Below are positions 14,723 through 64,000 of a stretch of DNA of 64,000 nt, piece by piece (position 1 is the first letter of the stretch; every line of letters starts with the position of its first letter). The DNA is taken from the IMG/VR virus record IMGVR_UViG_3300029049_000006; one strand, 5' to 3'. The position numbers and the translations under genes were made by a program. The notes under the pieces are model-generated. The model was not told the DNA's origin, ran no database searches, and saw nothing but the letters and a program-made list of their open reading frames with translations. The stretch is from a virus.

Positions 14723-17206
14723 ATGGCATTACGGCGAGTACAAAGAGGGGAACCCTTACGTATTGGACAGATTAACCAGTACGCCGAACTTCTCGGGCAG
14801 ATGGCCGGAGGCGGAAAGCTCTTCCGGGCCAACAGGACCGGCTACCAGATGGACCGGGACCTGAACCCCCTGTTCCCATTTGAGCTGATGGCCCTGGATG
14901 CCCAGTCAAGCACCGGGGAAGCTACAAAAGGCGTGCCGCTGGCGAAATCCAAGGATTTAATCGCGTTTCTCCACCCCGGTTCCGTCACGTTTATCGGACT
15001 GGACGGCGCGGCCTCGCAGGTGTTCCCGGTTATCAAAGACCCGAAATACGCCCCTACGGATTCCCCCGGCGGAGGAAACGAAGATGGAGCCGCCGTCAAT
15101 ACCTGGCCCCGCCCCGGTATTCAAATTGAGCTTGATACGGTATATGGCATCCACCTGTTCGCCAAATTAGAGCGGGTGACGATGCAGATAGGCCGTGACC
15201 GGATAATTCAGGTGTCGGTCAAGAAATGGTGTCGTGACCGCACCCCATTCATCGGCACGGAGGACGAAATGGACAGCTCCGCTTCGGATGATGAAGACAT
15301 TATCCGGACGTTCATTCCATTGTTCCGGCCCATTGAAGACAGCGCAATCGAAGGAAACGTTTATGTGGAAAACCTGCATGAAAGCGATTTGATTCTTCCG
15401 GACATTCCGCTTGAGGGCGGATCGTCGTCTTCCTCGGCATCCTCTTCATCCAGCAGCTCCAGTAGTTCGAGCGGCGGGGTATCGTTCAGCAGTTCAAGCA
15501 GCTCATCATCAAAATCAGAGGGTTCGGAATCCGCATCTTTTTCCTCGTCTTCGTCGTCAGTAGGACCCTACATTGACCCTACACTGATTTCCGTGCCGGC
15601 GCGGGAACCCAATTCGGAATTCGGCGGCATCTACCGCACTCTGAAAGGCTTTAATTTCCCGCCCAGCGACGACAAGCCGGGCATGGCCTACATTATCATT
15701 TTCAGCCCTGTCGAATCTTGCGACTGGGTAAACTTTTCCACAGCCGGATTGGTGGAAACCAAAACGGACAAGCAATGGGAAGGCTACGTCGCCATTGACG
15801 ACAACGGGAATTGGGATTGCAATGTCATCATTGACGAATTCACCGACCCGGAACATACCGGCGTCCACCGCTACAAAGATTTCAAAGTTGGCTACCGGGC
15901 TAAAAAGCAGAACATAGCCGTCGATATTCTCATTGTTGACCAGGCGCCCCCGGAAGTGTCCTCTTCCTCGTCTTCGTCGTCTGTGAGTTCATCTTCGGAA
16001 GAAAAGTATTATTTCCGGTTTGTCCCTAATAAAATTACGGTGGACAGCCAATTTCAGAAAGTACAGGGCTATATCCGCACCGACTCCCCCTACGGGTGGA
16101 AAATCCCAGAGGACTTTCCGGCGCAGTTCCCTTCCGGGAAATGGGTATCTATTTCCCCGCTGACCGGGAAAGACCACGATAATTTTGAGGTTACGTTCCA
16201 GAAAAACGAGGAAGGGACCACCCGCGATAATCTGGTAACAGGGTACGCATTGACCTCGCGCGGCACATTGATGCTGGAAGCAACCGACACCCTGAATGTC
16301 ACCCAGACCCCGGAAGCCTCTTTATCCAGCAGTTCAAGCAGTTCGAGCAGTTCCTCTTCATCTTCATCATCTTCATCATCTTCCTCTTCCTCTTCCGGCT
16401 CGTCAAGTTCGTCCCAGGCGGACTGGTTTGAAGTGTTCCCTACTTCTATGGCCTTTGGCGCGGACGGCAAGCCAAAAGATTCTAACAAGGTAAGGCTTCG
16501 CGGAACGGTCGGATGGCAGGCTGATACGCAAAAAGACTGGTGTTCCATGTCCCCGTCATCCGGCTCAGCGCCAGGGGATGCAGGGACAGAAGCCGTGATA
16601 ACCTGCCAACCGAACAAGGAGGTCAACGGAAGAAGCACACTGGTTGAAATTAGCGTCACCCTGAATGGGTCGCCGCAATATTACTACGTCAATGTCATCC
16701 AGGAAGGCAATCCTCCTGTTCCTTCGTCGGAAAGCGAATCTTCCTCATCCTCGGAAGCCTCTTCGGGAGCCAGTTCGGCTTCATCAAGCAAAACCGCCAT
16801 TTTGCCGGTGCGCGGAAAGTTCCTCGGAATGATGTGCATGGAATCCCCGGAAACCTGGTTTGTCGACTTCGCCACCATTCACCTTCCGCTTGGGCTGATG
16901 CTGGTTGACCAGACGTTCATTGATGTTACCGAGCCGGGTTCCATAGCGGTTGTGTCCGCCATAGATGACCGGGGCCGCCCCGCAAGAGCATGGCTGCGGC
17001 TGGAAGGCAGGGAAAAGAAATATCTGACCTTGTATGCCCGTCCGCAGGGGTTGGGCCGGATATTCAGGCCGGACCGCATTACCGTCCAACTGATAGGGAG
17101 ACGCCTCGGACACCGGAGCAGGTTCCCGGAATTTTCAGAAGCGCAGTTCCGGGCGAACGAAGCGTTCTATGCCCAGGCGCACAGGGAGGAACCCCCGGAA
17201 GAGTAA
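14723..17206 (+). CDS. tail fiber / tail tip protein with poly-Ser linkers
   Basis: 827 aa; three long Ser tracts (nt ~15421-15565, 16315-16415, 16735-16800) separating globular domains; position after TMP/Dit. Confidence 0.5.
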   Translation: MALRRVQRGEPLRIGQINQYAELLGQMAGGGKLFRANRTGYQMDRDLNPLFPFELMALDAQSSTGEATKGVPLAKSKDLIAFLHPGSVTFIGLDGAASQVFPVIKDPKYAPTDSPGGGNEDGAAVNTWPRPGIQIELDTVYGIHLFAKLERVTMQIGRDRIIQVSVKKWCRDRTPFIGTEDEMDSSASDDEDIIRTFIPLFRPIEDSAIEGNVYVENLHESDLILPDIPLEGGSSSSSASSSSSSSSSSSGGVSFSSSSSSSSKSEGSESASFSSSSSSVGPYIDPTLISVPAREPNSEFGGIYRTLKGFNFPPSDDKPGMAYIIIFSPVESCDWVNFSTAGLVETKTDKQWEGYVAIDDNGNWDCNVIIDEFTDPEHTGVHRYKDFKVGYRAKKQNIAVDILIVDQAPPEVSSSSSSSSVSSSSEEKYYFRFVPNKITVDSQFQKVQGYIRTDSPYGWKIPEDFPAQFPSGKWVSISPLTGKDHDNFEVTFQKNEEGTTRDNLVTGYALTSRGTLMLEATDTLNVTQTPEASLSSSSSSSSSSSSSSSSSSSSSSSSGSSSSSQADWFEVFPTSMAFGADGKPKDSNKVRLRGTVGWQADTQKDWCSMSPSSGSAPGDAGTEAVITCQPNKEVNGRSTLVEISVTLNGSPQYYYVNVIQEGNPPVPSSESESSSSSEASSGASSASSSKTAILPVRGKFLGMMCMESPETWFVDFATIHLPLGLMLVDQTFIDVTEPGSIAVVSAIDDRGRPARAWLRLEGREKKYLTLYARPQGLGRIFRPDRITVQLIGRRLGHRSRFPEFSEAQFRANEAFYAQAHREEPPEE

Positions 17207-17234
17207 CCTTCCCTGCCTTCCGGGGGCCTCCGGC

Positions 17235-17603
17235 CTATGCCCATATAACATTCCCCAGCCGGGAAATATCCACCGCCTTTTTCCCGGCGCGCACAGCCGC
17301 CCTCAGTTCCCCGTAGTTTCTGCGGATTTCATGCGTTACCGGGTAATCCCGGAACACGTTGATATAATTCAGCCACCGTTCCTTTTGCGTGTACACCGCC
17401 GAATCTTTTATTATGTAGATTGTTGCGCTTTCGTCAATTTTCCTGTCCGGGATGCACGTGCAGCAATACCACTGATACCACTCATGGATGAGGTACACCG
17501 TATTAAAGCCGCGCAGGGTCATGACAGCCGTATCGGCGATATATTTGGGGGCCAGATTAAAAAGCTGCTCTTTGGTCAGTTCAATTTTCTTTGGTGCTTT
17601 CAT
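17235..17603 (-). CDS. hypothetical protein (only minus-strand gene; moron-like)
   Basis: 122-aa protein-like ORF; reverse-complement upstream carries TCTTGCAATT ... TATGATAA promoter copy and shares palindrome 17675-17695; + strand frames here look non-coding. Confidence 0.5.
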   Translation of the reverse strand: MKAPKKIELTKEQLFNLAPKYIADTAVMTLRGFNTVYLIHEWYQWYCCTCIPDRKIDESATIYIIKDSAVYTQKERWLNYINVFRDYPVTHEIRRNYGELRAAVRAGKKAVDISRLGNVIWA

Positions 17604-17674
17604 TGTATCTTGATGCCCTTATCATAGCTATCTTTTTAAAAATTGCAAGAGAAAAATACACATTCCACGAGAAA

Positions 17675-17746: not shown

Positions 17747-18799
17747 ATGATAACCTTAAACCATCTCGGAATATCCCACGCGGTCATCATTGCCCTGCCG
17801 GAACGTGCCGAACATGTTTCCCGGCTGAAAAACTCCATGATTGACGGAGGCATCGACCCGGAAAGCGGCGTTACCATACTCCCTGCCTGGAACGGTCGTG
17901 AGCTGCACCCCCCGAAAAGCTGGAAGGGGACCCGTGGCGCATGGGGCTGCGTACAGTCCCACATCCGGGCCTTGCGGCTCGCAGTCAAAAACAATTGGGA
18001 ATCAGTGCTCATTTTGGAGGACGACGCCATATTTTGCCGCAATGCCGCCGTCAGACTGCAAACGTTGTTTGCCGCTCTGCCGAAAGACTGGCGGTTGCTC
18101 TACCTCGGAGGCCACCACCAAAACTGGCCGAAAGAAGTCCACGCGGATTACATTTTGGCTTCCGGCATGACGGCCACCCACGCCTACATCGTCAAACGGG
18201 AATCCGTGCCCTGGCTTATCAAGCACATCGCCTATTATCCCGACTACGAACAACAGCAATGGGGCGTTGACCAGCAAATCCGGAACGCCGTCTATCGGGG
18301 CGACATCCTCCAATACGCCCCGCGCTGGAATATTGTAGGGCAACAGCGTCAGGAGTACAGCACCATTGCCCATTCCAGAGCCGGAAACCGGGAACGCTGG
18401 TGGGAGCATTCGCAAAACGACCAGTTCCGCCTGCTTCCGCTCGTACTTCTCCAAGAGCCGTTAACCGTGGAAGACGTTGACGGGCTTGAGGAACTGGTGG
18501 ACATCGCCCCGGAAAAAAGCGTTGAATCCCTTCTGGAAAAAACGGAAGACATGGCCGGCGCCATCATTGAAGCACTTTCCTACAGCGCACGGGGAGCGTT
18601 CAGCCACCGGCGCGTTCCCGCCCTGTATTACAGCGACCGGAAAGCTGCGGACAGATGCGCCCGCCTGTGGTCTGCGGAATGCCTGTTTGCCGAAGCCGGT
18701 GATTCCGACCAAACCAGGGAACTTCTCGTTACCGCCCTGCGCCGCGTTGTCGATTATGCGGAAAACCCGGATATGAACCCGGACATGGGCGAAAACTAA
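17747..18799 (+). CDS. glycosyltransferase family 25 (Lic2A/LgtB-like) with ~130-aa C-terminal extension
   Basis: HAVIIALPERAEHVSRL N-terminus; KGTRGAWGCVQSHIRALRLAV and LILEDDAIF match GT25 GEiGC.lSH / lEDD signatures. Confidence 0.7.
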   Translation: MITLNHLGISHAVIIALPERAEHVSRLKNSMIDGGIDPESGVTILPAWNGRELHPPKSWKGTRGAWGCVQSHIRALRLAVKNNWESVLILEDDAIFCRNAAVRLQTLFAALPKDWRLLYLGGHHQNWPKEVHADYILASGMTATHAYIVKRESVPWLIKHIAYYPDYEQQQWGVDQQIRNAVYRGDILQYAPRWNIVGQQRQEYSTIAHSRAGNRERWWEHSQNDQFRLLPLVLLQEPLTVEDVDGLEELVDIAPEKSVESLLEKTEDMAGAIIEALSYSARGAFSHRRVPALYYSDRKAADRCARLWSAECLFAEAGDSDQTRELLVTALRRVVDYAENPDMNPDMGEN

Positions 18800-18821: not shown

Positions 18822-19862
18822 ATGGATTATTTATTTCCGCATTATTTTGACCGTATTGTCGTCATCAATCTCGCCAAAAACCCCGAACGGTTCACCCGCA
18901 TTGCCGACGAGCTGAAACATAAGTGCCTGGCCGGGCCGGATGATATTGTCAGGCATGAAGCCGTGCATGGGGATTCCATGCCGCACCCGGCATGGTACAG
19001 GGCCGGAAACGGAGCATGGGGGTGCTTGTCCAGCCACATTGAGGCGCTGGAAGATGCCTGGAACACCGGAAGCGAACATACTCTGATTATTGAGGATGAC
19101 ACCGTATTCGCCGACGACCTTTTGACACGGTTCCCGGAAATCATGAAAGAAGTTCCGAAGGAATACGGGCAGTTGTATCTTGGAGGCCAGCACCAACAGG
19201 CCCCGGAAGCCCTGTCTGACACGTTGTGGCGCGGCACGTCCATCAACCGGACGCACTGCTACGCCGTCACCCGGAAATTCATTCCGGAAATCCTCGCCCA
19301 TATCATGGACTGGGACACCCACATCAAGGCTGCGGGAAACCCGCTCCATATCGACCACACGCTGGAAATCGGACACCAGCGCCGGTACTGGCCCGTGTTC
19401 TGCCCCCGGTTCTGGTTCGCGGGACAGGGAGAAAACCAGTCCGACATCAACGGCAGGCCGCAGCGGGAAATGTGGTGGGAATACTCCGTGAAACAACAGC
19501 ACCTGGAACTTCCCCTGCTTGTGCTACGGACCGTTGACACGCCAAAACATATTAAAGGCCTTGTGTTTGCCGGTTGGCCGACAGATTTAGACGCCCGTGG
19601 CGTGAATAAAAAGATTGAGGATGCCAAAAAAGACAAGGCCACTCTGCTTCGGGAAATAAGCTGGCTGGCTTACGTGGGATTCCAGCACCACAGCCTTCCG
19701 GCGGTGTATCTTCCGGAGCCGGAACCTATCAGCGAGCTGCAACGCCTGTGGTCCGGGGAAGTCGTTGACACAGCCCGCATGGATGACGCGGACATTCACC
19801 GGATGCACCGCATTCTGGAATTCGCCAGCAACCCGGAGATGCTAAAGTATAGGTTCCGATAG
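18822..19862 (+). CDS. glycosyltransferase family 25, paralog 2
   Basis: RIVVINLAKNPERF, GNGAWGCLSSHIEALEDAW, LIIEDDTVF; paralogous to 17747..18799. Confidence 0.7.
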   Translation: MDYLFPHYFDRIVVINLAKNPERFTRIADELKHKCLAGPDDIVRHEAVHGDSMPHPAWYRAGNGAWGCLSSHIEALEDAWNTGSEHTLIIEDDTVFADDLLTRFPEIMKEVPKEYGQLYLGGQHQQAPEALSDTLWRGTSINRTHCYAVTRKFIPEILAHIMDWDTHIKAAGNPLHIDHTLEIGHQRRYWPVFCPRFWFAGQGENQSDINGRPQREMWWEYSVKQQHLELPLLVLRTVDTPKHIKGLVFAGWPTDLDARGVNKKIEDAKKDKATLLREISWLAYVGFQHHSLPAVYLPEPEPISELQRLWSGEVVDTARMDDADIHRMHRILEFASNPEMLKYRFR

Positions 19863-19890: not shown

Positions 19891-20508
19891 ATGACAGGCA
19901 TGAAACGGTTACGTTTGATGCCTGTCTTTTTTGTGATTGCCGGGTGCGCCCAGCAAAACCCGCAGCCGTCCATTACTACGCCCGTACCGGAGCCGGTTGT
20001 GGAAAAAACAGTCGTCCGGCCTGTAGCGTCGTCAACAGTCGAATGCGCGGCCACCGTCCAGGAAGCGGCTAACGCCGTGCAGAATAGTATTACGGCTATT
20101 GTCTCCACTCTGCAACAGGCGGAGGCCGCCACGCAGGAACCGCAAACCCCCGGATGGGCTGACATGTTGTCCGAGCTGGCAAAGCAGGCCGGAAACGCGG
20201 ACAAGCAGACCGCCGTACTGATAGACCGTTCCGACCGCCTGACCAAACAGGTGACCACTTTATCCAGAACGTGCGAACAACTGGCGGAAGAACGGGACGC
20301 GGCAATCAAAACCGCGCAGGAATCCAGAGACGCGGCCTCAGCAATCAAGGCGGAAGCCGCAGAGGTAAAAGCTGATGCACAGGCCCGCCTGTCCTCCATG
20401 TCGGACGAGCGTTCCTGGTGGCGGAAATGCGCCCTTTATACCTGGGCGGGCATTGCGGTTTTTTGTCTGGCGTGGCTCGGAATCCGGCTGGCAAGGGCCG
20501 TCAGGTAG
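19891..20508 (+). CDS. u-spanin-like protein (lipoprotein signal plus C-terminal TMD)
   Basis: MTGMKRLRLMPVFFVIAGCAQQ (lipobox VIAGC), coiled-coil middle, C-terminal TM WWRKCALYTWAGIAVFCLAWLGIRL; lies upstream of holin/endolysin. Confidence 0.4.
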   Translation: MTGMKRLRLMPVFFVIAGCAQQNPQPSITTPVPEPVVEKTVVRPVASSTVECAATVQEAANAVQNSITAIVSTLQQAEAATQEPQTPGWADMLSELAKQAGNADKQTAVLIDRSDRLTKQVTTLSRTCEQLAEERDAAIKTAQESRDAASAIKAEAAEVKADAQARLSSMSDERSWWRKCALYTWAGIAVFCLAWLGIRLARAVR

Positions 20509-21060: not shown

Positions 21061-21136
21061 CCTAAAGGGTAAGTACGGGGCCTGGGCTGTTTCGCCCAGG
21101 CACTCTGGGACAGGATTGGAAGAGTAGCCCAGAGTG
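21056..21136 (+). ncRNA. three consecutive perfect GC-rich hairpins (structured RNA/DNA element)
   Basis: CTTACCC-taaa-GGGTAAG (21056-21073); GCCTGGGC-tgtttc-GCCCAGGC (21080-21101); CACTCTGGG-19 nt-CCCAGAGTG (21101-21136). Confidence 0.35.
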
Positions 21137-21184
21137 TGAAATTTCCACTACTGTTCCGGCCAGTTTCATGTTACGGTTCCGGGG

Positions 21185-21535
21185 ATGAAAAACCTTCCGC
21201 AAATCGTCAAAGACAGTTGGCGCGATATTATCGCTTTTTTGCTCATCGGCATTTTCCTCTCCATCGGCGTGGAATACCTGATTCGCCTCTCAGTCATCAT
21301 GGACGTTACCGGGGCGGCTTCCTTCATTGCCTTGCTGCAGGGCTTCACCAAGTTCGCGGGAGCCAACCTCTGCGCATGGCTGCTGGGAGCCAATGTGGCC
21401 TTCCCGTACATTTCCCGTTGGGCCAGATTCGACTTCAATGCGACCTGGCGCACGATGGAGGGGTTCCGGAAAGCCCAATGCTTCCTCGCGGTTGCCATCG
21501 GGGAATTGCTCATGGCCGCCATCTGCTTTGCCTGA
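21185..21535 (+). CDS. putative holin
   Basis: 116 aa, 3-4 predicted TM segments; ends 9 nt before endolysin start. Confidence 0.45.
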   Translation: MKNLPQIVKDSWRDIIAFLLIGIFLSIGVEYLIRLSVIMDVTGAASFIALLQGFTKFAGANLCAWLLGANVAFPYISRWARFDFNATWRTMEGFRKAQCFLAVAIGELLMAAICFA

Positions 21536-21543
21536 TACGCCCC

Positions 21544-22236
21544 ATGAACGGTCGGAGTTTAATCGGTTTGGCCCTTGCGGCCCTGTCCGCGTTTTTCGCC
21601 TGCGGGGATATGCCGGCTTCCGGTCTGGTCCTAAGTGACCGGGCCGTAGATATGATTATCCGGTACGAGACCGGAGGGAAGGCGTACTACGTGAAAAAGC
21701 TCGTGCGGCCCACATGGCCCGGAGGGGACAGCGGGGTAACAATCGGCATCGGCTACGACCTGGGCTACTATTCGGCGGCGCAGATTCGTTCCGACTGGGC
21801 ATCGCTTCCGGAAAAAGACCTCCGGTTGCTTTGCACCGTGGCCGGGTTGAAGCGTCAGACGGCCCGCGCATCTGTGAGCCGGGTGCGGTCTGTCACCGTT
21901 CCGTGGGAGCTGGCGTTGGACGTGTACCGGAAAAAGACGATTCCCGCCTATGCGTACACGGCTAAAACCGCGTTTCAGGGGCTGGCCTTAACTCATCCCC
22001 ATGTGCAGGGTGCTATGGTGTCTTTGGTGTATAACCGGGGTGCTTCCATGTCGGGGGCCAGCCGGAAGGAGATGCGGGACTGCCGGGATGACATCAAGTC
22101 CGGGCAGGTGCGGCGGGTTCCTGCCCATATCCGGAGCATGAAACGGCTGTGGATTGGGAAGGGCCTGAACGGGCTGTTAATCCGCCGGGAAGAGGAAGCC
22201 TGCCTGGTTGAACTGGGGCTGAAAGAAAAAAATTGA
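21544..22236 (+). CDS. endolysin, GH24 (T4-lysozyme-like) with N-terminal signal peptide
   Basis: MNGRSLIGLALAALSAFFACG signal; IIRYETGGKAYYVKKL...GVTIGIGYDLG matches GH24 lysozyme catalytic region. Confidence 0.75.
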   Translation: MNGRSLIGLALAALSAFFACGDMPASGLVLSDRAVDMIIRYETGGKAYYVKKLVRPTWPGGDSGVTIGIGYDLGYYSAAQIRSDWASLPEKDLRLLCTVAGLKRQTARASVSRVRSVTVPWELALDVYRKKTIPAYAYTAKTAFQGLALTHPHVQGAMVSLVYNRGASMSGASRKEMRDCRDDIKSGQVRRVPAHIRSMKRLWIGKGLNGLLIRREEEACLVELGLKEKN

Positions 22237-54630: not shown

Positions 54631-54631
54631 A

Positions 54632-54982
54632 ATGACACCTGAGCAAGAAACATATAAAGAATATGGAAGGGCGCAAGAAGCCCTTCATCAGACAATCAAG
54701 GAGATAAAAAAAGAATCCTTTTTTACTTTTGGGAAGCCATATTGCAAGCTTACGAAGTTGGAAAGGGAGAGTATATCCCATGCTTTGGGTTTATGCGATA
54801 AAGTCCGCTATGTCCGCAAAATGCGTACCGCATGCCGGACATGGGCATTCACGCCCATGAACAAACGCTATTGTGATGACTGTCGATATTACTGCACATC
54901 CGTCTCGGATGGCCCCTGCAGAGAATGTTGCCGGCGGCTGGAACCTGTAAATTGGGAACCTAGAAAGGAGAACAAAAACTAA
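54632..54982 (+). CDS. zinc-ribbon protein, tandem paralog 2
   Basis: Same architecture; starts 2 nt after paralog 1 stop. Confidence 0.5.
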   Translation: MTPEQETYKEYGRAQEALHQTIKEIKKESFFTFGKPYCKLTKLERESISHALGLCDKVRYVRKMRTACRTWAFTPMNKRYCDDCRYYCTSVSDGPCRECCRRLEPVNWEPRKENKN

Positions 54983-55353
54983 TGAAAATGACACCTGAAC
55001 AAAGAGCCTTTTTTGAGTATGGGAAAGTACAAGGAGTTGTCGAAGATACGGAAATCGAGATTAACCTTGCCTCCCCTAAAGGGGGTATGCCGCCTATAAC
55101 GTTTAATAAGGAGTTTTCTTTAAAAGAGGGCAAAAAACTAGCCGAGAAAAAACAGGAGATATGTCTGGGCTGGGCAATTCCATACCGCAAAAGGCGGTGC
55201 GTAAACTGCCTGCACCGGAAAACGCGTTCATGTGACCCTCCATGTGATTTGTGCTTCCGTAATGTTAAAGGCGGCTTATTCGACTGTTCGGACAGGGAGG
55301 GTAAAGAAGAATATGGGGATTTCTGGGAGCCGGAAACCGGGAAGGAAGAATAA
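54982..55353 (+). CDS. zinc-ribbon protein, tandem paralog 3
   Basis: Same architecture; TAATGA junction. Confidence 0.5.
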   Translation: MKMTPEQRAFFEYGKVQGVVEDTEIEINLASPKGGMPPITFNKEFSLKEGKKLAEKKQEICLGWAIPYRKRRCVNCLHRKTRSCDPPCDLCFRNVKGGLFDCSDREGKEEYGDFWEPETGKEE

Positions 55354-55354
55354 A

Positions 55355-55468
55355 ATGATTGATGCAATCTCCAATATGCTGGGCATGGCTCTCATATTTA
55401 CCATAGCGTACTTGTCTTATTTAATCGGCAGGCAGGACGCTGGCAAAAATGAAAAAAGAAAGAAATGA
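55355..55468 (+). CDS. hypothetical 37-aa membrane peptide
   Basis: MIDAISNMLGMALIFTIAYLSYLIGRQDAGKNEKRKK. Confidence 0.25.
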   Translation: MIDAISNMLGMALIFTIAYLSYLIGRQDAGKNEKRKK

Positions 55469-55842
55469 AAAAGACTACTGAACAAACAGCCTTTTATTGG
55501 TACGGATTTTATAAAGCCTGCCTGAAATTAAAAATTAAAGAGGCCCGCAATTATGCTGAGTGTGAATACGGGAGGCAATACGGTGAGCTGGCATCAGCGG
55601 GGCGAGAAGAGTGCCTGGTATATGCCGGGGTCAGGTCTTACATTATTCTGACCCGAAGAGCACGCCGCTCATGCCGGTTATTTGGCATACCCAGCGCTGA
55701 ACGGTCATGTGTTAATTGTGCGTATGTCGATTTATTGCATTACCAGCCGCCATGTAATAATTGCCTTCGTTCCCCGTATGCCGTGCATGGAGAAACAACC
55801 GACGATGCCTGGAAGCCGACTGGAAAATGGCAAATTCCATAA
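55465..55842 (+). CDS. zinc-ribbon protein, tandem paralog 4
   Basis: Same architecture; ATGA overlap. Confidence 0.5.
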   Translation: MKKTTEQTAFYWYGFYKACLKLKIKEARNYAECEYGRQYGELASAGREECLVYAGVRSYIILTRRARRSCRLFGIPSAERSCVNCAYVDLLHYQPPCNNCLRSPYAVHGETTDDAWKPTGKWQIP

Positions 55843-56765: not shown

Positions 56766-58256
56766 ATGCACCAGGACACCGACGCAGAAAATGCCGCCAG
56801 TCAGAGCCGGTTGAACGAAACCGCCATGCTGATTCCCCGGCTGCTGTTAAAAGCCCGTACTGATTTTATTGCATTTTTGCTTGCCATTTCCGACGACGAA
56901 TCCGGCTACATCCTGTCCCGAATGCACCTGTTTATTGCGGGCAAGCTCAATGATACCGTCACCCGGAAGGACGTGCCGAGGAATTACACTATTTCCGTAC
57001 CACCCCAGCACGGGAAGTCCTCCCTGATTGTGCGGTATGTCGCGTGGCTGGTTGGGTCTTATCCCAGATTGTGCGTTGCCCTGACCGGCTTCTCCGCTGA
57101 ATTGATGGGTCAGATGCTCCGGCAGGTCACATCCATTATGGATTTGCCCGTGTACCAGGTAATTTTTCCCGGAGTGAAAGTGAAGCCGAAGGATGACCGC
57201 TGGGACTATAAACGGTTCACCAATGACGCTATTATTTATGCTAAGCCGGCAGGCTCCAAGCTGACCGGGAGGCGGGTGGACATCCTCATTATTGACGACC
57301 CCCATGCCGGACGTGCCGAAGCCGAATCCCCCACTATCCGCAACCGCGTTGTGCAGTGGGCAGTTGCAGACTGCTTTTCCCGCCTTTCGCCTCATTGGCG
57401 GGTGTTTGTCATTGGAACCCGGTGGCATCCGGAAGACCTCATTGGACATCTCACCGGGCGGGAATACAATAAACGGCTTGAAATGCTTGGCAATACCGCC
57501 ATGAAATTTGAAGTCATCAAGATTCCCGCTATCTGCGAAGACCCGGCTACCGACCCCCTGGGGCGGAAGGCTGGGGAAGTAGCATTCCCGGAAGAGCGTG
57601 ACTTGGAGTTTTTAACATCCATCCGTGGGGCCATGACTACGACAGAATGGAAATCCCAGTATCAGCAGGAGCCGGTCACGTCCAAGGGCGGGCAGGTCAA
57701 CGCGGACGATTTTAACCTCATTTCCCCGGAGGAAGTGCCGTGGAGCGAGCTGACGGCCATAGGCTCCGGCTGGGACTTGGCCGCAACCGACAAAACGGCA
57801 TCCGACTGGACCGTGGGCGCATGCGGGGCGCGGACAAAGGATGGCCGCCTGTATATTTTCGACCAGTTCCGCAGGCAAATGCAGATTCCAAAACTGCTTC
57901 CGGCCATTGAAGCCCGCGCCCTGGCGTGGAAAGATATGTACGGGGCCAATCAGCTGGGCGTGGAAGGCGTGGGGGGCATGGTGGGGTATTATCAGCAGCT
58001 CCGGCAAATGCTCCTGGGAAAAATCAGCGTGCGGCTCAAAAATCCCCCGGTCAAAGGAGGGGGAAAACTGGTGCGGGCGCAAAACTGGCTGGCTCTGGTG
58101 GAGGCAAAAAAAGTGTATCTGGTACAGGCTCCCTGGGTGCGGTCGTTTCTGGAAGAGGTGGAAGTATTCCCGGACGGGGACCACGATGACCAGGTGGACA
58201 GCGTATCCATTCTTTACGAGCTTCTGTTTCTCTCCGCCCGCATTCTGGTCGGATAG
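56766..58256 (+). CDS. terminase large subunit
   Basis: PQHGKSS P-loop, VDILIIDDPH Walker B, VIGTRWH, C-terminal RNase-H-like nuclease with DLAATDK and DHDDQVDS. Confidence 0.8.
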   Translation: MHQDTDAENAASQSRLNETAMLIPRLLLKARTDFIAFLLAISDDESGYILSRMHLFIAGKLNDTVTRKDVPRNYTISVPPQHGKSSLIVRYVAWLVGSYPRLCVALTGFSAELMGQMLRQVTSIMDLPVYQVIFPGVKVKPKDDRWDYKRFTNDAIIYAKPAGSKLTGRRVDILIIDDPHAGRAEAESPTIRNRVVQWAVADCFSRLSPHWRVFVIGTRWHPEDLIGHLTGREYNKRLEMLGNTAMKFEVIKIPAICEDPATDPLGRKAGEVAFPEERDLEFLTSIRGAMTTTEWKSQYQQEPVTSKGGQVNADDFNLISPEEVPWSELTAIGSGWDLAATDKTASDWTVGACGARTKDGRLYIFDQFRRQMQIPKLLPAIEARALAWKDMYGANQLGVEGVGGMVGYYQQLRQMLLGKISVRLKNPPVKGGGKLVRAQNWLALVEAKKVYLVQAPWVRSFLEEVEVFPDGDHDDQVDSVSILYELLFLSARILVG

Positions 58257-58266
58257 GCCGTCAATA

Positions 58267-58608: not shown

Positions 58609-59484
58609 ATGACAGTTCAAACCTTACCGGCAACCGTGCCGGACAGCGTTTCTGCGACCTTGCGCGTCGTCATGAAGCCCGTGGAATCAATTCACCCCTA
58701 CGAAAATAACCCCCGCTACAACGACAGCGCGGTTCCCTACGTCAAAAACTCAATTCAGGAGTTCGGCTTCAAGGTTCCGATTATCGTCGATGAAGCCGGA
58801 AGCATTGTCTGCGGTCACACGAGGTACAAGGTGGCCCTGGAATTGGGCATGAGCCATGTGCCTTGCATTGTCGCTTCGGATTTGACCCCAAAGCAGATTC
58901 AGGCGTTCCGCCTTGTTGATAACAAGGTGTCGGAGTTTTCAAGCTGGGATTTTTCCAAACTTGAAATTGAGATAGGGGAGCTGGATGCCGAATTTAATCT
59001 TGATGACTTCGGTTTTTTCTCCGATTCAGAGCGGGCGGGAAGCTCGCCGGCGGATGTGGGCAGTGCCGCAGAAATGCAGGATGATACTGCGAGGGATGAC
59101 CGGAATATCTATACAGGACGCATCATTACTCCGGTTTATGAAATTACCGGGGATTGTCCAAAAACCGAAGAGCTGGTTGACCGCACCAGAGCGGAATCCC
59201 TGCTGGAAGAGATTGACCGGACCCCAGGGCTTCCGGATGCCGTGCGTGACTTTTTGCGTATTGCCGCCATGCGGCACTATGTCCTGCATTTCGACAGGAT
59301 AGCCGAGTTTTACGCCCATGCGGTCCCTCCTGTGCAGCGGCTCATGGAAAACTCCTGTCTGGTCATTATTGATTATGACCGCGCCATTGAACTTGGATAT
59401 GTGCAAATGGCACGTGCCCTGGCCGATGAATATGACCGAGAATACCCGGAAGGGGAAGAACAGGAAGGAGGCAGCGAATCATGA
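58609..59484 (+). CDS. ParB-like nuclease-domain protein with conserved C-terminal domain (paralog A)
   Basis: IHPYENNPRYNDSAVPYVKNSIQEFGFKVPIIVDEAGSIVCGHTRYKVALELG matches ParB/Srx N-terminal domain (NPR...SI...G...P..V....G..R..A); C-terminal domain shared with 62638..63480. Confidence 0.6.
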   Translation: MTVQTLPATVPDSVSATLRVVMKPVESIHPYENNPRYNDSAVPYVKNSIQEFGFKVPIIVDEAGSIVCGHTRYKVALELGMSHVPCIVASDLTPKQIQAFRLVDNKVSEFSSWDFSKLEIEIGELDAEFNLDDFGFFSDSERAGSSPADVGSAAEMQDDTARDDRNIYTGRIITPVYEITGDCPKTEELVDRTRAESLLEEIDRTPGLPDAVRDFLRIAAMRHYVLHFDRIAEFYAHAVPPVQRLMENSCLVIIDYDRAIELGYVQMARALADEYDREYPEGEEQEGGSES

Positions 59485-60416
59485 TGCGGCACTCTGATTT
59501 CTGCGTCCTGATTATTTCCCATGGACGGGCCGGGAGGGTGAAAACCCTGAACGCGCTTGAGCGTTTTGGCTATAGCGGCCCCTGGTACATTATTATCGAC
59601 AATGAGGATTCACAGGCCGGGGACTACCTTAATTGCTATGGGAGTGACCACGTTGTTGTTTTTGATAAACCCCTTGAGGCATCCAGGCTGGACATAGCGG
59701 ATAATTTTACAGGCCGTCTTGGGCGCAAAAGTACCGTGTACGTACGCAATGCGAGCTTTGACATTGCCCGCCGCCTGGGATTCCGGTATTTCATGGTGCT
59801 GGACGACGATTACGACTATTTCCGTTTCGTATTGGACAGCAACCGCCGCTATACTTGCCGGCGCTGTACCTGTCTGGACACAATCCTTGACATCTGCCTC
59901 GATTACTTCACCCGTACACCGGCCCTTGCCACCATAGCGTGGCTTCAAGGCGGCGACCTGCTGGGAGGGGCCAACTCCAACAGCCTTTTCAGCCTCCGGC
60001 GAAAAGCCATGAACAGTTTTATCTGTGACACGGAACGCCCCTTTTCCTTCATGGGCCGGTTTAATGAAGACGTGAACACCTACATCACTCACGGAAACCG
60101 GGGAGTGATCATGTTCTCAATTACGGAATTGGCGCTTAACCAGGCCAGCACCCAGCAGACGACGGGAGGGATGACGGAAGCCTACCAGGAAAACGGAACC
60201 TACGTGAAATCGTTTTACAGTGTCATGCATATGCCGTCTGCGGTGAAAATCCGGACAATGGGCGAACATTACCGAAGAATCCACCATGCTATTACATGGA
60301 ATAATTGTGTGCCGAAAATCATCCGTCCGGAGTACCAGAAACCGGATATTGTGCGGGGTGACAGAAGAAAACGCGGCAGGAGCCGAAAAAAACTGCTTGC
60401 AATTCCGGCCCCTTAA
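59481..60416 (+). CDS. hypothetical protein with DxD-like LDDDY motif (possible GT-A-fold nucleotide-sugar transferase), paralog A
   Basis: FCVLIISHGRAGRV...WYIIIDNEDS...FMVLDDDYDYF pattern resembles GT-A strand-loop-DxD layout; ATGA overlap with ParB-like gene. Confidence 0.4.
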   Translation: MMRHSDFCVLIISHGRAGRVKTLNALERFGYSGPWYIIIDNEDSQAGDYLNCYGSDHVVVFDKPLEASRLDIADNFTGRLGRKSTVYVRNASFDIARRLGFRYFMVLDDDYDYFRFVLDSNRRYTCRRCTCLDTILDICLDYFTRTPALATIAWLQGGDLLGGANSNSLFSLRRKAMNSFICDTERPFSFMGRFNEDVNTYITHGNRGVIMFSITELALNQASTQQTTGGMTEAYQENGTYVKSFYSVMHMPSAVKIRTMGEHYRRIHHAITWNNCVPKIIRPEYQKPDIVRGDRRKRGRSRKKLLAIPAP

Positions 60417-60538: not shown

Positions 60539-60928
60539 ATGTGTACTGCAGGAAACCGGGGGCTTGTTTTCTTTCCCCCCTCAGGGTATAACGGCGGCGT
60601 TATGATTGCCTTGAATACTCCTATTGCCACCATACCGGGGCGCCGGTACTGCATCACCACAGTATCTTCCGTCCAGGTGATTGCCGTCATTGACGACGAA
60701 GAGTTTGATTTGCTGGGGGGCCTTCCCATTACTGGCCAGGCGCAATTTGTCGCCCCCACGGACCACATTGAGGTGCGTGACGCGTCAGCCCCGGAAGAAG
60801 GGGCGGCGGCCAGCGCATCGGAATCATCCCCAGAAACGTCAAGCGTCATGTTTGACGGCTCTGCAACGCCCCTTGCCGGAGACGCGGCTTCCGTGTCCGG
60901 GAGCATCGTCGAAATTGTACGCAGTTGA
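60539..60928 (+). CDS. hypothetical protein
   Basis: In-frame ATG of ORF 60530..60928; opposite-strand ORF looks like an antisense artifact. Confidence 0.3.
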   Translation: MCTAGNRGLVFFPPSGYNGGVMIALNTPIATIPGRRYCITTVSSVQVIAVIDDEEFDLLGGLPITGQAQFVAPTDHIEVRDASAPEEGAAASASESSPETSSVMFDGSATPLAGDAASVSGSIVEIVRS

Positions 60929-61220
60929 CAAGCTATCCCGGATTTGGCAGGATGCTCCCTGCATGCGCGACGCGCTTCAAAGGCGTGGATTGAGGCGATA
61001 AGGGCATGCTTTCGCAGGGTGTATGTGTGGGAGACGTAATGAGCTCTCCCCTTCCCCTGCGGCAAACGGGAACAACAAAAAAGGGGATGCCCTTCCTTTT
61101 TTCCAGGATGGCCGCAGTTTTCCGCTGTGGGGAAAGAAGGAAGGGTATTTTTCCGCCTCCAATTTTTCTTTTTATTCTTTGTGCCTGATGCAGATTCCTC
61201 CCCCCCCTGATAAATTCCGA

Positions 61221-61979
61221 ATGCACTGTATCATTCCCCTGAAAGCACGCTCTATGCGTTGCCCAGGAAAAAATTTCAGAACCTGCAACCCGTATCTTTC
61301 CGGGGGCCTGATTCCGCTGTGGGAAGTGTCGGCCAGGTACGTCAGGGGCGAGGGATGGGAACCAGTTATTTCCTGTGACAGTCCGGAATTGTTGCATGAT
61401 ATTTCCCGGCGCGGATATGAACGCACTGTTTTATGGCATCCTGACCCGGAATCCCCATATATGCAGGGCCACATCAGTCAGGTTGCCGCGCAGATTAACG
61501 CCGGGGATTCCGACCTGCTTTGCGTAGTCCAGGCAACTTCCCCGGTAAGACGGCCCGGACTGCTTCGGGACATGCACACCTTGATGTCATCCGATACCAA
61601 TATTCAGGTGGCTTTTACAGGGGAACGCCTGAAAATTTGCGGCATCCTGAATGGCTCTCTTTTTGGGCAGGATGAAAGCCAGTCCGCCCGGCACTGGTAC
61701 GACCACTATGACGGGGCGCTTTTACTACTGCGCTATGATACTCTGAAACGCTGCCCCCCCCGAACAGTCGTGCATCCAGGGCTGCTGTCCGGCCCCAGTG
61801 ATAAAGTGGCCGTGTTTTACCAGACCCTGCCTTGGTCATTCCAAATCGACACGGAAGACGATTATTCCTTTTATCTGCAACTGCGGCGGCCTGATGCGGA
61901 AAAACAGTCAGCCTTCCGCAAACGGTCGAACCCGTACCGGGTATATACAAAAAGCGCAGCCCCTGATGAATTGGCATGA
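61221..61979 (+). CDS. CMP-sugar synthetase (acylneuraminate/KDO cytidylyltransferase family, CTP_transf_3-like)
   Basis: HCIIPLKARSMRCPGKNFRTCNPYLSGGLIPLWEV (ilAR.nSKglP.KNl...G.pLi); VISCDSPEL; LLCVVQATSPVRRPGLLRD (QPTSPLR). Confidence 0.65.
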   Translation: MHCIIPLKARSMRCPGKNFRTCNPYLSGGLIPLWEVSARYVRGEGWEPVISCDSPELLHDISRRGYERTVLWHPDPESPYMQGHISQVAAQINAGDSDLLCVVQATSPVRRPGLLRDMHTLMSSDTNIQVAFTGERLKICGILNGSLFGQDESQSARHWYDHYDGALLLLRYDTLKRCPPRTVVHPGLLSGPSDKVAVFYQTLPWSFQIDTEDDYSFYLQLRRPDAEKQSAFRKRSNPYRVYTKSAAPDELA

Positions 61980-62575
61980 TTGTATTGGTAGGAAATGCCC
62001 AGGAATCCGAACACCGGCTTAAAGACTGCTCCGCTTTTATTGATTCCGGCAAGCCCCGGCTGGTGGTGAGGGTGTCGAAAATGTGCAACTATGATTCCGG
62101 AAAAACCGGAACGCGCTGTGACTGGGTGTTCCTCAACCCTAATCCCATGTACTGGACCTTTCCGCCAGAGCGCCGCCATTGGAATGTGCTTGCCGGGGCC
62201 AGTAAAATCATCATCACCTATCCCCCTCCCGGAAGCCTGAAAGAAGGGCCTTGCATTCCTCCGTACTGGCAAAAGGAAGAATACCGGTTTCTGCACCAGC
62301 ACCCTTTTCTGGAATATTTGCCGGAGGCGGTGTTCCGGGAAGGGATGGACCGGCGGCTGACGACGTTCGGATTTGCCCTGTGGGTGCTTTCGCGGCGTTT
62401 CCCGCATGAGCAGATAGCCCTGCATGGGTGCATTACCTCGCAGAATGCGTGGCGCCGTGTCCGCTGGTGCCCCTGGCACAATGGCGTTGGCGAGTTTGCC
62501 CTGTATGCCAATCTGTCCCGGAACGGTCGGATTTTCAGGCTGGACGGCGGCGAATTATGCTTTAATGAGGATTGA
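61976..62575 (+). CDS. hypothetical protein, CstII/GT42 sialyltransferase-like (tentative)
   Basis: MIVLVGNAQES ~ CstII KKVIIAGNGPS; GTRCDWVFLNPNPMYW ~ GKKCKAVFYNPSLF; ATGA overlap with cytidylyltransferase. Confidence 0.35.
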   Translation: MIVLVGNAQESEHRLKDCSAFIDSGKPRLVVRVSKMCNYDSGKTGTRCDWVFLNPNPMYWTFPPERRHWNVLAGASKIIITYPPPGSLKEGPCIPPYWQKEEYRFLHQHPFLEYLPEAVFREGMDRRLTTFGFALWVLSRRFPHEQIALHGCITSQNAWRRVRWCPWHNGVGEFALYANLSRNGRIFRLDGGELCFNED

Positions 62576-62597
62576 AACCATGCTAAGAATCCATGAG

Positions 62598-62619: not shown

Positions 62620-62637
62620 CAAAAATCATTTTTACAC

Positions 62638-63480
62638 ATGGAAATTGTAGATATTGCCGTAAAAGACCTGGTTCCTTACGATAAAAATCCGCGCCGTAAT
62701 GATGAAGCGGCCGTCAAGGTGGCGGAATCCATTAAACAGTTCGGCTTTAAGATTCCTCTTGTGGTTGACCGCAATAATGTTGTTGTCTGCGGACACACCC
62801 GTTTAAAGGCCGCAAAAAAGTTAAAGCTTAAAACTGTTCCTTGCATCCGGGCTGACGATTTGTCGGAAGACCAAATCAAGGCGTTCCGTCTGGTGGACAA
62901 TCGGACGGCGGAAATCGCCGAATGGGATTTTGCCCTTTTAGAAGAGGAACTGGCGGACGTGCAGCTTGACATGACCGCCTTTGACTTCGGTGGGCTTTTG
63001 CCGGAAGAAGAGGGTGGGGGCGAAAACGGTCAGACCTCGGCGGGGGCCGGAAATGGAAGGGAGGAAGAAAGTGCATTACCGGATTCGCAAACTGCGGAAA
63101 ATATGTACACGCAGCGCATCGTCACTCCGGTTTATGAAGTTACCGGGGATTGCCCGGAAGTGTCTTCTCTGGTGGACAAGGGCAAAGCGGAAGCGCTGCT
63201 GGAATCCATTGACCAAGCCCAGGAACTCCCGGATGATGTGCGGGAGTTTTTACGCATCGCCGCTGCCAGGCATTATGTTTTGCATTTTGACCGCATTGCC
63301 GAATACTACGCCCATGCCCCGGCCCATATTCAGCGGCTCATGGAAGATTCCTGTCTGGTCATCATTGATTTTAATAAAGCCATTGAGCAGGGATATATCC
63401 GCATGTCCGAACGGTTGGCCGCGCTGGCCAGCATAGACGAACAGGGCGCAACGGAAGAAGAAGACGAAGCGGGCGAATAA
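62638..63480 (+). CDS. ParB-like nuclease-domain protein (paralog B)
   Basis: LVPYDKNPRRNDEAAVKVAESIKQFGFKIPLVVDRNNVVVCGHTRLKAAKKL; C-terminal domain nearly colinear with paralog A. Confidence 0.6.
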   Translation: MEIVDIAVKDLVPYDKNPRRNDEAAVKVAESIKQFGFKIPLVVDRNNVVVCGHTRLKAAKKLKLKTVPCIRADDLSEDQIKAFRLVDNRTAEIAEWDFALLEEELADVQLDMTAFDFGGLLPEEEGGGENGQTSAGAGNGREEESALPDSQTAENMYTQRIVTPVYEVTGDCPEVSSLVDKGKAEALLESIDQAQELPDDVREFLRIAAARHYVLHFDRIAEYYAHAPAHIQRLMEDSCLVIIDFNKAIEQGYIRMSERLAALASIDEQGATEEEDEAGE

Positions 63481-63525
63481 CACAGGCCGCTTTGATTTTT
63501 TTACCGCAATAACTTTTCTTTTTTT

Positions 63526-64000
63526 ATGCTGACGCATTCCGATTTTTGTACGTTTATTTTGTCTCATGGGCGGCCAAATAACATCAGAACTCTGCACCCA
63601 TTGTTAAACACCGGAAACTACAGCGGCCCCTGGTACATCGTCATCGACAATGAGGACCCCACGGCGGAAACCTATTATCAGCTTTACGGCTCCAACCGGG
63701 TAATCATGTTTGACAAGGAGGCCGAAGCCCGCCGTCTGGATATTGCAGATAATTTCATCCACATGAGCCGCAAGACTATTACCTATGCTCGTAATGCCTG
63801 TTATGACATTGCCAGAAACTTAGGCTACACGTATTTTTGGCAACTGGATGACGATTATTGCCGGTTCCGGTACGTAACCGACCAGGCCGGAAAATACGTG
63901 TACCACAGCATCCGCCACATGGACGAGGCGTTGAACGCGACGCTTGATTATTATAAAAGCGTTCCTTCCCTGACCCTGCTGTCCTGGATGCAGGGCGGGG
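63526..64000 (+). CDS. DxD-motif protein paralog B, 3'-truncated at window edge
   Basis: MLTHSDFCTFILSHGRPNN...WYIVIDNEDP...FWQLDDDYCRF colinear with 59481..60416. Confidence 0.45.
   Translation, partial: MLTHSDFCTFILSHGRPNNIRTLHPLLNTGNYSGPWYIVIDNEDPTAETYYQLYGSNRVIMFDKEAEARRLDIADNFIHMSRKTITYARNACYDIARNLGYTYFWQLDDDYCRFRYVTDQAGKYVYHSIRHMDEALNATLDYYKSVPSLTLLSWMQGG

Follow-up and report, generated by a model that had tools for sequence, protein, structure and literature searches.

Two candidate glycosylation modules within the large sugar and sulfate gene complement of a human-gut phage

Glycosyltransferases of the TET-associated (TAGT) family, reportedly defined by Iyer et al. in 2013, have a GT-A fold. 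Characterised TAGT/GT-A relatives act on DNA, with glucosyl-5-hydroxymethylcytosine as target in phages T2 and T6 and 5-hydroxymethylcytosine (5hmC) in metavirome clusters, and the trypanosome JGT is a structural homolog of these enzymes (PMC13216743; 10.1101/2023.12.21.572611). Their GT-A motif, R...DDD...ED, has been defined (10.1101/2023.12.21.572611), and their co-occurrence with ParB and terminase genes has been described (10.1101/2023.12.21.572611; PMC13229309). Experiments have established that one ParB-like protein activates the thymine dioxygenase of a phage on double-stranded DNA (PMC13229309). Solitary TAGTs are also on record, their function undefined (PMC13216743), in 288 of 753 phages in one survey, and about 65% of such glycosyltransferase matches in the literature have no 5mYOX or thymidylate-synthase (ThyS) gene nearby. 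What, then, do such enzymes modify? This question is raised by the DNA analysed here, a stretch of 64 kb (64,000 nucleotides; 'the window') from the IMG/VR virus record IMGVR_UViG_3300029049_000006. It encodes two TAGTs, each preceded by a ParB-like protein, together with two GT25 glycosyltransferases next to a poly-Ser tail protein, a CMP-sugar-synthetase-like protein and a sialyltransferase-fold protein.

Protein acceptors are known as well. Gram-positive serine-rich-repeat glycoproteins are O-glycosylated stepwise in the cytoplasm by GtfA/B and accessory Gly/Nss enzymes. Virion glycosylation has reportedly been found in mycobacteriophages by Freeman et al. in 2023 (cited in PMC10568470); there, as for the glycosylated fibrils of Mimivirus, soluble virus-encoded glycosyltransferases lie near structural genes and O-glycosylation is predicted. 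In bacteria, pairs of a CMP-sialic acid synthetase and a Cst-type sialyltransferase serve mimicry on lipooligosaccharide (LOS) or capsule.

How does the phage compare? Its TAGTs share the Pfam family PF20691 and the R...DDD...ED motif with post-replicative TAGT/GT-A DNA glycosylation clusters and with the T2/T6 beta-glucosyl-HMC-alpha-glucosyltransferase, and like those clusters it has two glycosyltransferases with ParB-like and terminase neighbours; its accessory cytidylyltransferase recalls that of contig 53 among them (PMC8256090; 10.1101/2023.12.21.572611). Unlike these clusters, the phage has no detectable homolog of a C5-methyltransferase, of 5mYOX (TET/JBP) or of thymidylate synthase; its module is duplicated, with a separate, translationally coupled ParB for every TAGT, and the accessory transferase has a sialyltransferase (GT42/GT29-like) fold, of which the studies of known clusters report none. 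As in the ParB-dependent thymine dioxygenase systems (O'Toole 2026, PMC13229309), the ParB-like protein is an orphan with an NTP-binding and a C-terminal domain and no helix-turn-helix (HTH); it stands beside a DNA-modifying enzyme, for which it is presumably specific, and terminase and glycosyltransferase genes co-occur with it. Unlike in those systems, the partner is a glycosyltransferase and there is no dioxygenase, and a dependence of the TAGT on ParB is read only from the 90% adjacency of their genes. The TAGTs are a described enzyme family in an uncharacterised, duplicated, ParB-coupled arrangement without an acceptor-making enzyme. The original prediction had called the whole system apparently undescribed. 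This has to be narrowed, as the co-occurrence of TAGT, ParB and terminase genes was already described; what was not found in the literature is the synteny of GT25 and poly-Ser genes, a ParB–TAGT pair at work without a source of 5-hydroxymethylpyrimidine, and a duplication of the pair on either side of synthetase and sialyltransferase genes.

The explanation in which we have moderate confidence is that one gut phage carries two mechanistically separate glycosylation modules within a larger sugar and sulfate complement; acceptors and sugars are in every case what we infer. In Module 1 (17.7-19.9 kb), the soluble enzymes GT25a and GT25b would O-glycosylate the poly-Ser linkers of an 827-aa tail protein in the cytoplasm, ahead of assembly. 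One would probably start the glycan and the other extend it, giving a glycosylated virion tail. In Module 2 (58.6-64.4 kb), two ParB–TAGT pairs would glycosylate phage DNA after replication, around packaging, the ParB-like partner loading or activating its cognate GT-A enzyme on double-stranded DNA, by analogy with the ParB-dependent thymine dioxygenases. The synthetase and the sialyltransferase-fold enzyme would activate a CMP-linked nonulosonic-type sugar acid and then transfer it onto a pre-existing glycan. The six sugar-handling genes of the original prediction are all there by Pfam, homology, profile and fold evidence (two GT25, two TAGT, one synthetase-like, one with the sialyltransferase fold). 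Its view that they form one elaborate system fares less well, since the evidence favours at least two mechanistically separate modules. Of the three targets it had proposed, the tail fibre gains support from GT25–poly-Ser synteny, and DNA from the TAGT family and the adjacency of ParB.

The window is 64 kb out of a phage genome of about 88 kb, as estimated from a reconstruction and exact-protein look-ups. The roughly 25 kb missing from it were rebuilt from strain variants through blastn overlaps, and come from other strains than the window's contig: locus L001 lies downstream of the window, L013 upstream of it, and L017 is the bridge. The glyco-gene complement, noted from the start as unusually large, is with this remainder even larger: a GT11 gene, a DXD glycosyltransferase, a sulfotransferase and genes for the synthesis of 3'-phosphoadenosine 5'-phosphosulfate (PAPS) lie outside the window, which gives at least ten sugar or sulfate genes genome-wide.

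ParB–TAGT pairs beside the terminase gene

The cluster begins directly after the gene for the large terminase subunit, TerL (56766-58256, + strand; Pfam Terminase_6C, E 6e-12, and Terminase_6N). The stop of ParB1 (58609-59484, +; Pfam ParB_N, E 3e-6; PHROG 620, E 2e-54) overlaps the start of TAGT1 (59481-60416, +; Pfam PF20691, E 1e-27, 97.9 bits against a cut-off of 27.5; PHROG 842, E 9e-63), and that of ParB2 (62638-63480, +; ParB_N, E 4e-7) closely abuts the start of TAGT2 (63526-64000, +; PF20691, E 5e-22, 79.2 bits against 27.5). TAGT2 is cut by the end of the window and has 287 aa when complete (loci L001-L012). The pairs are paralogous, with 48% identity between ParB1 and ParB2 and 54% between TAGT1 and TAGT2. 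That two 'DxD proteins' handle sugars and have ParB-like partners close to the terminase gene had been proposed from the start; both points hold, and the enzymes can now be placed in a family. Both keep the R...DDD...ED motif, and R16, D108-D110 and D197 are invariant in seven homologs, the two copies included (alignment A4). ParB1 has an N-terminal NTP-binding domain, an acidic linker and a helical C-terminal domain; ParB_N is its sole Pfam domain, no HTH was found in it, and a GHTR box II-like motif is visible in the ParB sequence. A further match of the ParB N-domain is to PHROG 498, whose annotation is DNA methyltransferase (E about 7.5e-37 to 1e-39). A conserved 108-aa gene with no Pfam or PHROG match lies inside the cluster (60602-60928, +).

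Are these genes maintained? Ratios of non-synonymous to synonymous polymorphism (pN/pS) were computed against 12 strain variants. They are 0.007 for TerL, 0.36 for ParB1, 0.07 for TAGT1, 0.05 for the 108-aa gene (72 synonymous against 10 non-synonymous differences), 0.17 for the synthetase-like gene, 0.12 for the sialyltransferase-like gene, 0.08 for ParB2 and 0.10 for the part of TAGT2 in the window. The value for GT25a, 0.09, comes from only nine substitutions (seven synonymous, two non-synonymous) and has low power, and that for GT25b is uninformative because this gene was the look-up key for the variants. By this measure, all measurable sugar-handling genes are under purifying selection, and their function appears to be retained.

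The pair is not peculiar to this phage. By tblastn among isolates, TAGT has homologs of 24-49% identity in Haloarcula virus HHTV-2 and in phages that infect E. coli, Salmonella, Lactobacillus, Nocardia, Vibrio or Porphyromonas; the whole pair is present in those of E. coli, Lactobacillus and Porphyromonas and in a haloarchaeal virus. At the isolate loci inspected ParB is usually adjacent, and the pair lies just upstream of the terminase genes or a few kb from them; Vibrio phage pv27 has a TAGT homolog without ParB, between primase and helicase genes. A single pattern scan of IMG/VR gave at least 570 relatives of the pair. ParB lies directly upstream of the TAGT homolog, on the same strand, at 63 of the 70 IMG/VR loci with enough upstream sequence (90%). 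The position is almost always the start of the packaging/late operon, the commonest further neighbours are terminase subunits, portal and head proteins, and no other enzyme recurs beside the pair in the IMG/VR loci. Two copies were seen in this phage and at only one further locus (IMG/VR L122-L201). Phages of 31-50 kb repeatedly carry the pair with neither a further glycosyltransferase nor a poly-Ser protein. ParB–TAGT is, judged by gene content, an uncharacterised module of two genes that is widespread in viruses of bacteria and archaea. Since Gram-negative, Gram-positive and archaeal viruses all have it, DNA or the packaging machinery would be a far more likely substrate than a host surface glycan.

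Some observations weigh against DNA as the acceptor. Every open reading frame (ORF) of at least about 80 aa in the window and the reconstructed remainder, including the concatenated unannotated proteins, was searched with Pfam (E up to 0.01-0.1), and no TET/JBP, thymidylate-synthase-like or C5-methyltransferase protein was found; 5hmC or 5-hydroxymethyluracil (5hmU) therefore has no visible source. The 31.8-kb Lactobacillus phage c5 likewise has none of these genes. A packaging-linked protein may be what the TAGTs glycosylate. Divergent dioxygenases may, for their part, escape Pfam (PMC13229309). No work on the ParB–TAGT pair as such came out of the literature search, nor any on the pair without a 5-hydroxymethylpyrimidine source or on its duplication flanking a synthetase/sialyltransferase pair. 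If Module 2 does act on DNA, the orphan ParB–TAGT pair would be a two-gene DNA-modification system with an acceptor other than the textbook 5hmC/5hmU, and the activation of DNA-modifying enzymes by ParB-like proteins would be generalised.

Downstream of TAGT2 there is a 135-aa protein (L001 14650-15057) whose match to ASCH (PUA-like) is sub-threshold (E 0.09), and it was not counted. Domains of the ASCH/PUA-like superfamily have often been proposed as readers of modified nucleic acids.

Two GT25 genes beside a poly-Ser tail protein

The tail-tip/fibre protein of 827 aa is encoded at 14723-17206 (+), after the tape measure and a 266-aa protein. It was singled out early as a poly-Ser tail protein, and rightly so: several poly-Ser linkers, the longest of about 30 Ser, accompany a BACON domain (Pfam E 1.9e-8) and, at aa 690-824, a C-terminal domain that is conserved. 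In one strain variant it has 974 aa, with one more poly-Ser/BACON repeat. The GT25 genes follow, GT25a at 17747-18799 (+; Pfam PF01755 Glyco_transf_25, E 1.8e-8, 35 bits against a cut-off of 24), its predicted start now corrected to 17747, and GT25b at 18822-19862 (+; PF01755, E 3.3e-6, 27.5 bits against 24). They are full-length paralogs (27% identity, E 5e-38), both also match PHROG 'glucosyltransferase' families (854/2835 for GT25a), and a C-terminal domain of about 130 aa is common to both and to 16 metagenomic homologs. The EDD motif, E91-D92-D93, is invariant in the family (alignment A3). With an AlphaFold model of GT25b (pLDDT 88), the top Foldseek matches are the human collagen galactosyltransferase COLGALT1 (E 1e-11) and Mimivirus R655, which is among the closest solved folds; both are GT25 enzymes tied to collagen glycosylation, and bacterial beta-1,4-galactosyltransferases rank below them. 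An HMM score above cut-off, a DxD motif and a GT-A fold near solved GT25 structures together place the proteins in family 25.

But is the neighbouring tail protein the acceptor? Among the early contexts of GT25b homologs, one is beside a collagen-repeat protein and a holin, and one is at the end of a tail module. At three bacterial-genome loci (L095, L070 and L094) the upstream protein carries a long poly-Ser tract and has its C-terminal domain in common with the 827-aa protein (tblastn E 2e-11 to 9e-7); L095 is prophage-like, with a tyrosine-recombinase-like ORF close by. Synteny was then counted for GT25 homologs of 30-44% identity, as a same-strand poly-Ser ORF no more than 3.5 kb upstream of the GT25 gene, compared with an equal downstream window. 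Such an ORF lies upstream at 27 of 59 bacterial loci from GTDB and downstream at 1 of 56, with one on the opposite strand upstream (Fisher p 7e-9). The viral loci of IMG/VR gave 27 of 65 upstream, 0 of 63 downstream and none on the opposite strand upstream (p 5e-10). After clustering at 60% identity the asymmetry is kept, with 7/25 upstream and 1/25 downstream for GTDB (p 0.049), 7/24 and 0/24 for IMG/VR (p 0.009), and 14/49 and 1/49 for both sets (p 4e-4). As far as the literature search shows, this synteny is undescribed. O-glycosylation of the poly-Ser tail protein is what we take to be the most likely role of the GT25 pair, and we lean slightly towards it.

Several points pull the other way. 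The closest GT25 relatives, on Verrucomicrobiota chromosomes, have no poly-Ser neighbour, and the synteny occurs in about 30% of the sequence clusters, not in all. The end of the tail module is a classic site of host-conversion or accessory 'moron' genes, and in one relative the GT25 gene lies two genes ahead of a weak integrase match. Tail gene and GT25a are moreover separated by a conserved 122-aa gene on the minus strand (17235-17603, pN/pS 0.19; the + strand ORF that overlaps it, at 17169-17627, has a pN/pS of 1.05), so the GT25 pair would have its own transcription start.

Compared with the mycobacteriophage and Mimivirus systems, the enzymes are of another glycosyltransferase family, GT25 with a novel C-terminal domain, and the proposed acceptor differs by its long poly-Ser tail linkers; unlike in mycobacteriophages, the host would be a Gram-negative gut bacterium. 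Dedicated glycosyltransferases beside a long serine-rich protein are also found in the serine-rich-repeat systems, where, unlike here, the enzymes belong to GT4, GT8 and GT2 and the substrate is a SecA2/Y2-exported adhesin and not a phage tail protein. Should Module 1 act as proposed, poly-Ser linkers, which are common in phage tail proteins from metagenomes, would be glycosylation platforms of a dedicated GT25 subfamily. Virion glycosylation would then extend beyond mycobacteriophages to gut and environmental phages, with a bearing on how an abundant gut phage adheres to mucus and is recognised by the immune system, and on its host range.

A 251-aa protein past the ParB–TAGT cluster (L001 19764-20519) looks GT25-like by eye; with an hhalign E of 0.24 it was not counted as a third GT25.

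The synthetase pair and the choice of acceptor

Between the two ParB–TAGT pairs sit a 252-aa CMP-sugar-synthetase-like protein (NeuA/KdsB-type cytidylyltransferase; 61221-61979, +) and a 199-aa sialyltransferase-fold (GT42/GT29-like) protein (61976-62575, +), the stop of the first gene overlapping the start of the second. The synthetase gene had been predicted to begin at 61023; the start is better placed near 61221, as the stretch 60931-61220 is rich in indels and has no coding signal. The protein has no Pfam or NCBIfam match, even at E 10, and a word-indexed search returned only relatives of at least 79% identity. It aligns with the CTP_transf_3 domain of a fusion protein, P0061 (29% identity, BLASTP E 5e-18), and its sole PDB match is NeuA 9t4z, through the QATSP motif. 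This motif and IIPLKARSMRCPGKN are invariant among lineage variants (alignment A1), and QIDTEDDY, present in the window's copy, is conserved across intact variants; the catalytic roles of these motifs (nucleotide-binding, metal) are presumed from NeuA structures. Some strains have a frameshift near the C-terminus, so part of the population may do without the gene.

The 199-aa protein likewise has no direct Pfam match, even at E 10. Its remote homologs, from an exhaustive HMMER search, are stand-alone proteins of about 170 aa or C-terminal domains behind CTP_transf_3, and one of them, P0058, matches Glyco_transf_29 over the homologous stretch (E 7e-5). Both genes of the window thus have their homologs in fusion proteins, and the pair therefore corresponds to such a fusion that is split, with the order of synthetase and transferase kept. 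A profile built from 16 sequences of the family, compared with the PDB, gave Cst-II (GT42) or ST3Gal-I (GT29) in nine of ten matches, though only at E 0.07-0.5. The AlphaFold model (pLDDT 85, pTM 0.86) has sialyltransferases as all of its top nine Foldseek matches (probability 0.89-1.0, TM 0.45-0.56). A His about 40 residues past the TT motif, a candidate for the catalytic one, is kept in 13 of 16 family members. The order of NeuA/KdsB motifs followed by a GT42/GT29 fold is that of bacterial CMP-sialic acid synthetase and Cst-type pairs, and, as in LOS/capsule mimicry loci, fused homologs of the window pair occur in glycan islands with GT10, GT11 and GT6. Unlike those pairs, the window's proteins are too divergent for Pfam models, their genes lie between the DNA-glycosyltransferase modules of a phage, and NeuB/NeuC are missing.

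Which glycan would this pair extend? Its location between the ParB–TAGT pairs suggests a DNA-linked one. No synthetase or sialyltransferase homolog occurs, though, at any of the 79 other ParB–TAGT loci, and fused homologs stand elsewhere in glycan loci, one with GT4, GT31, GT11, GT6 and GT10 and a second with GT4 and GT11; such glycan-building partners argue against a DNA-linked role. Contexts of the sialyltransferase-like homologs are mixed (one short contig, one large phage and the two glycan loci), and in the large phage the stand-alone homolog adjoins topoisomerase genes. A virion or host glycan is a somewhat more likely target than a DNA glycan. The fold families point to a nonulosonic-acid donor; the phage shows no NeuB/NeuC sialic-acid synthase genes, and would therefore depend on its host or on the gut environment for the free sugar acid.

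Further enzymes of this kind lie outside the window. A sulfation cassette (L017 4809-8694, about 14-18 kb past the window end) comprises a sulfotransferase (Pfam Sulfotransfer_2), a CysD-like protein (PAPS_reduct, E 3e-29; NCBIfam CysD, E 1e-48, below the curated cut-off), a DXD glycosyltransferase (Gly_transf_sug, exactly at the Pfam cut-off), a short EF-Tu-type GTPase with a weak CysN match, and an adenosine 5'-phosphosulfate (APS) kinase. A PAPS pathway together with a sulfotransferase suggests sulfated glycans, and the cassette resembles NodPQH. A gene of the fucosyltransferase family GT11 is found just upstream of the window (L013 8805-9521), after the portal gene and a 746-aa head-module gene. 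To our knowledge, a sialyltransferase-fold enzyme, a CMP-sugar synthetase and a full sulfation pathway would make an unusually rich glycan toolkit for any phage. A 338-aa protein ahead of the portal (L013 3369-4385) has GT-A motifs (SSYKRP..., KIDDDDIYF); its match to Galactosyl_T is sub-threshold (E 0.13), and it is not counted.

Could a single substrate account for all these enzymes? One possibility, unlikely in our judgement, is that they all remodel a host surface glycoconjugate during infection, be it the core of lipopolysaccharide (LPS) or LOS, capsule or a host glycoprotein. Lipid-linked intermediates would be the substrates of the cytoplasmic glycosyltransferases, and the effect would be superinfection exclusion, avoidance of re-adsorption of progeny to debris, or host-glycan mimicry. 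The making of LOS or capsule epitopes is the classic role of the GT25, GT11, GT42-like and sulfotransferase families. The bacterial glycan islands that carry fused synthetase–sialyltransferase homologs agree with such a role, as do the Verrucomicrobiota chromosomal genes that are the closest GT25 relatives, a weak match to low-molecular-weight (LMW) phosphotyrosine phosphatase in the same genome, outside the window, and the place of the GT25 pair beside the lysis genes, typical of accessory genes. However, TAGT homologs of 40-49% identity in Gram-negative, Gram-positive and archaeal viruses rule out a common surface target, and the strong asymmetry of the GT25–poly-Ser synteny is not something that surface remodelling predicts. 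Nor did Pfam find an integrase, membrane proteins of the GtrA/GtrB/GtrC type, a flippase or a polymerase in the window or the reconstructed remainder, which sets the phage apart from temperate phages with seroconversion (O-antigen modification) cassettes.

A single pathway could also end on the virion or on DNA. In the first case, structural proteins would receive a complex glycan from all glycosyltransferases, TAGTs included; it might be fucosylated, sialylated and sulfated in the manner of mucin, and the ParB-like proteins would be adaptors unrelated to DNA modification. The genes are indeed spread over the structural modules, with GT11 after the portal and MuF-like genes, the GT25 pair after the tail protein and, by motif only, the GT-A-like 338-aa gene ahead of the portal; acceptor sites are plentiful in the poly-Ser tracts. 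Galactosyl-type GT25, GT11, a sialyltransferase fold and a sulfotransferase with PAPS synthesis resemble the machinery of mucin-type glycans, and synthetase–sialyltransferase homologs co-occur with GT11 elsewhere. We nevertheless hold this pathway to be rather improbable: all characterised TAGT members act on DNA, the ParB N-domain matches a family annotated as DNA methyltransferase, and the 31-50-kb phages have ParB–TAGT with neither another glycosyltransferase nor a poly-Ser protein. In the second case, TAGTs would add the first sugar to a DNA base, and GT25a/b, the sialyltransferase-like enzyme, GT11 and the sulfotransferase would extend it to a DNA-linked oligosaccharide of some complexity, possibly with sulfate. 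Reconstitution has yielded phage DNA glycans with as many as three sugars, Kdo and heptose among them, and such glycans are known to be extended by secondary glycosyltransferases that are relatives of LPS enzymes (10.1101/2023.12.21.572611); the position of the synthetase/sialyltransferase pair between the ParB–TAGT pairs fits as well. We rate this as very improbable, given a GT25–poly-Ser synteny that indicates a protein acceptor, the missing source of 5hmC or 5hmU, and the absence of synthetase/sialyltransferase homologs from the other 79 ParB–TAGT loci. The GT25, GT11 and sulfation genes, moreover, lie 20-45 kb from the TAGT cluster, and DNA-modification pathways are usually clustered (10.1101/2023.12.21.572611).

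Two separate modules, one for the tail and one for DNA, are thus preferred. A bolder version of this, which as a whole we consider improbable, would join a mucin-like O-glycan on the tail poly-Ser with ParB-loaded TAGT glycosylation of DNA that needs no 5-hydroxymethylpyrimidine intermediate. The tail glycan would be made by the GT25, GT11, sialyltransferase-like, synthetase, PAPS-synthesis and sulfotransferase genes, and would consist of galactose-type sugars, fucose, a sialic-acid-type sugar and sulfate, amounting to host-glycan mimicry on the virion. The DNA glycosylation would be a new chemistry, common to hundreds of small phages with orphan ParB–TAGT pairs.

The phage, its genome and its host

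Exact ParB2, TAGT1 and GT25b proteins were each found in 146-287 blocks of the assembly collection, ParB2 in 287; the longest contigs with them reach 77-90 kb, and the samples bear names of the kind used for human-gut cohorts. The virus is a widespread uncultured human-gut phage, present in hundreds of human-gut assemblies. By megablast, 27 kb of the window have no nucleotide relatives among 50,697 phage records, and the best isolate match of TerL is 33% identical. It is a siphophage, probably with a virulent lifestyle. The window's genes lie on the + strand almost throughout, with head and tail structural genes at 1-22 kb (the tape measure at 10679-13867), lysis genes at about 19.9-22 kb, a replication module at 22.5-45 kb (an AAA ATPase with an intein, DnaB, PolA, RNase H, helicase, RecA and RuvC) and an N6-methyltransferase at 46706-47509. 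TerL and the portal gene are not adjacent; between them is an accessory island of about 25 kb, which holds the ParB/TAGT cluster, the sulfation cassette, many small genes, the LMW phosphatase-like gene, a GroES (Cpn10) gene and a second large fibre-like protein of 801-902 aa with a faint BppL_N match. Promoter and terminator scans gave chance-level results only.

Which host does it infect? By eye, a lipoprotein signal with the lipobox IAGC and a transmembrane helix at the C-terminus can be made out in a 205-aa protein (19891-20508); it resembles a unimolecular spanin and thereby points to a Gram-negative host. After it, at 21136-22236, comes a weak phage-lysozyme match. GT25b relatives in bacterial genomes (L042-L121) are overwhelmingly from Verrucomicrobiota and Planctomycetota, one of them, with 40% identity, in an Akkermansia metagenome-assembled genome (L049). 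Together with a G+C content of about 53%, these relatives hint at Akkermansia, which is not evidence of the host; the BACON domain, typical of Bacteroidota, is in mild conflict with this hint. A genome scan for the host with the CysD-like protein gave no match, and no such phage was found in the literature.

A few other genes deserve mention. A 284-aa protein (49217-50071) was considered as a nuclease of the PLD family; its HKD-like 'HAKVIAG' was seen by eye only, with no Pfam support, and it is not counted. The intein of the AAA ATPase gene (22549-25047) comes with an HNH endonuclease (Pfam Intein_splicing and HNH_3, weak), and the gene product has 832 or 557 aa depending on the strain, at several loci. 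This may point to presence/absence polymorphism of the intein across strains. Finally, 54310-55842 holds a tandem family of four to five paralogous Cys-rich small proteins of 106-125 aa, with a common N-terminal helix, 'M(K)(L)TPEQ..(F)EYG(K/R)A', and CxxC motifs, and an extra copy of it is fused to another domain downstream of TAGT2 (L001 12630-13190).

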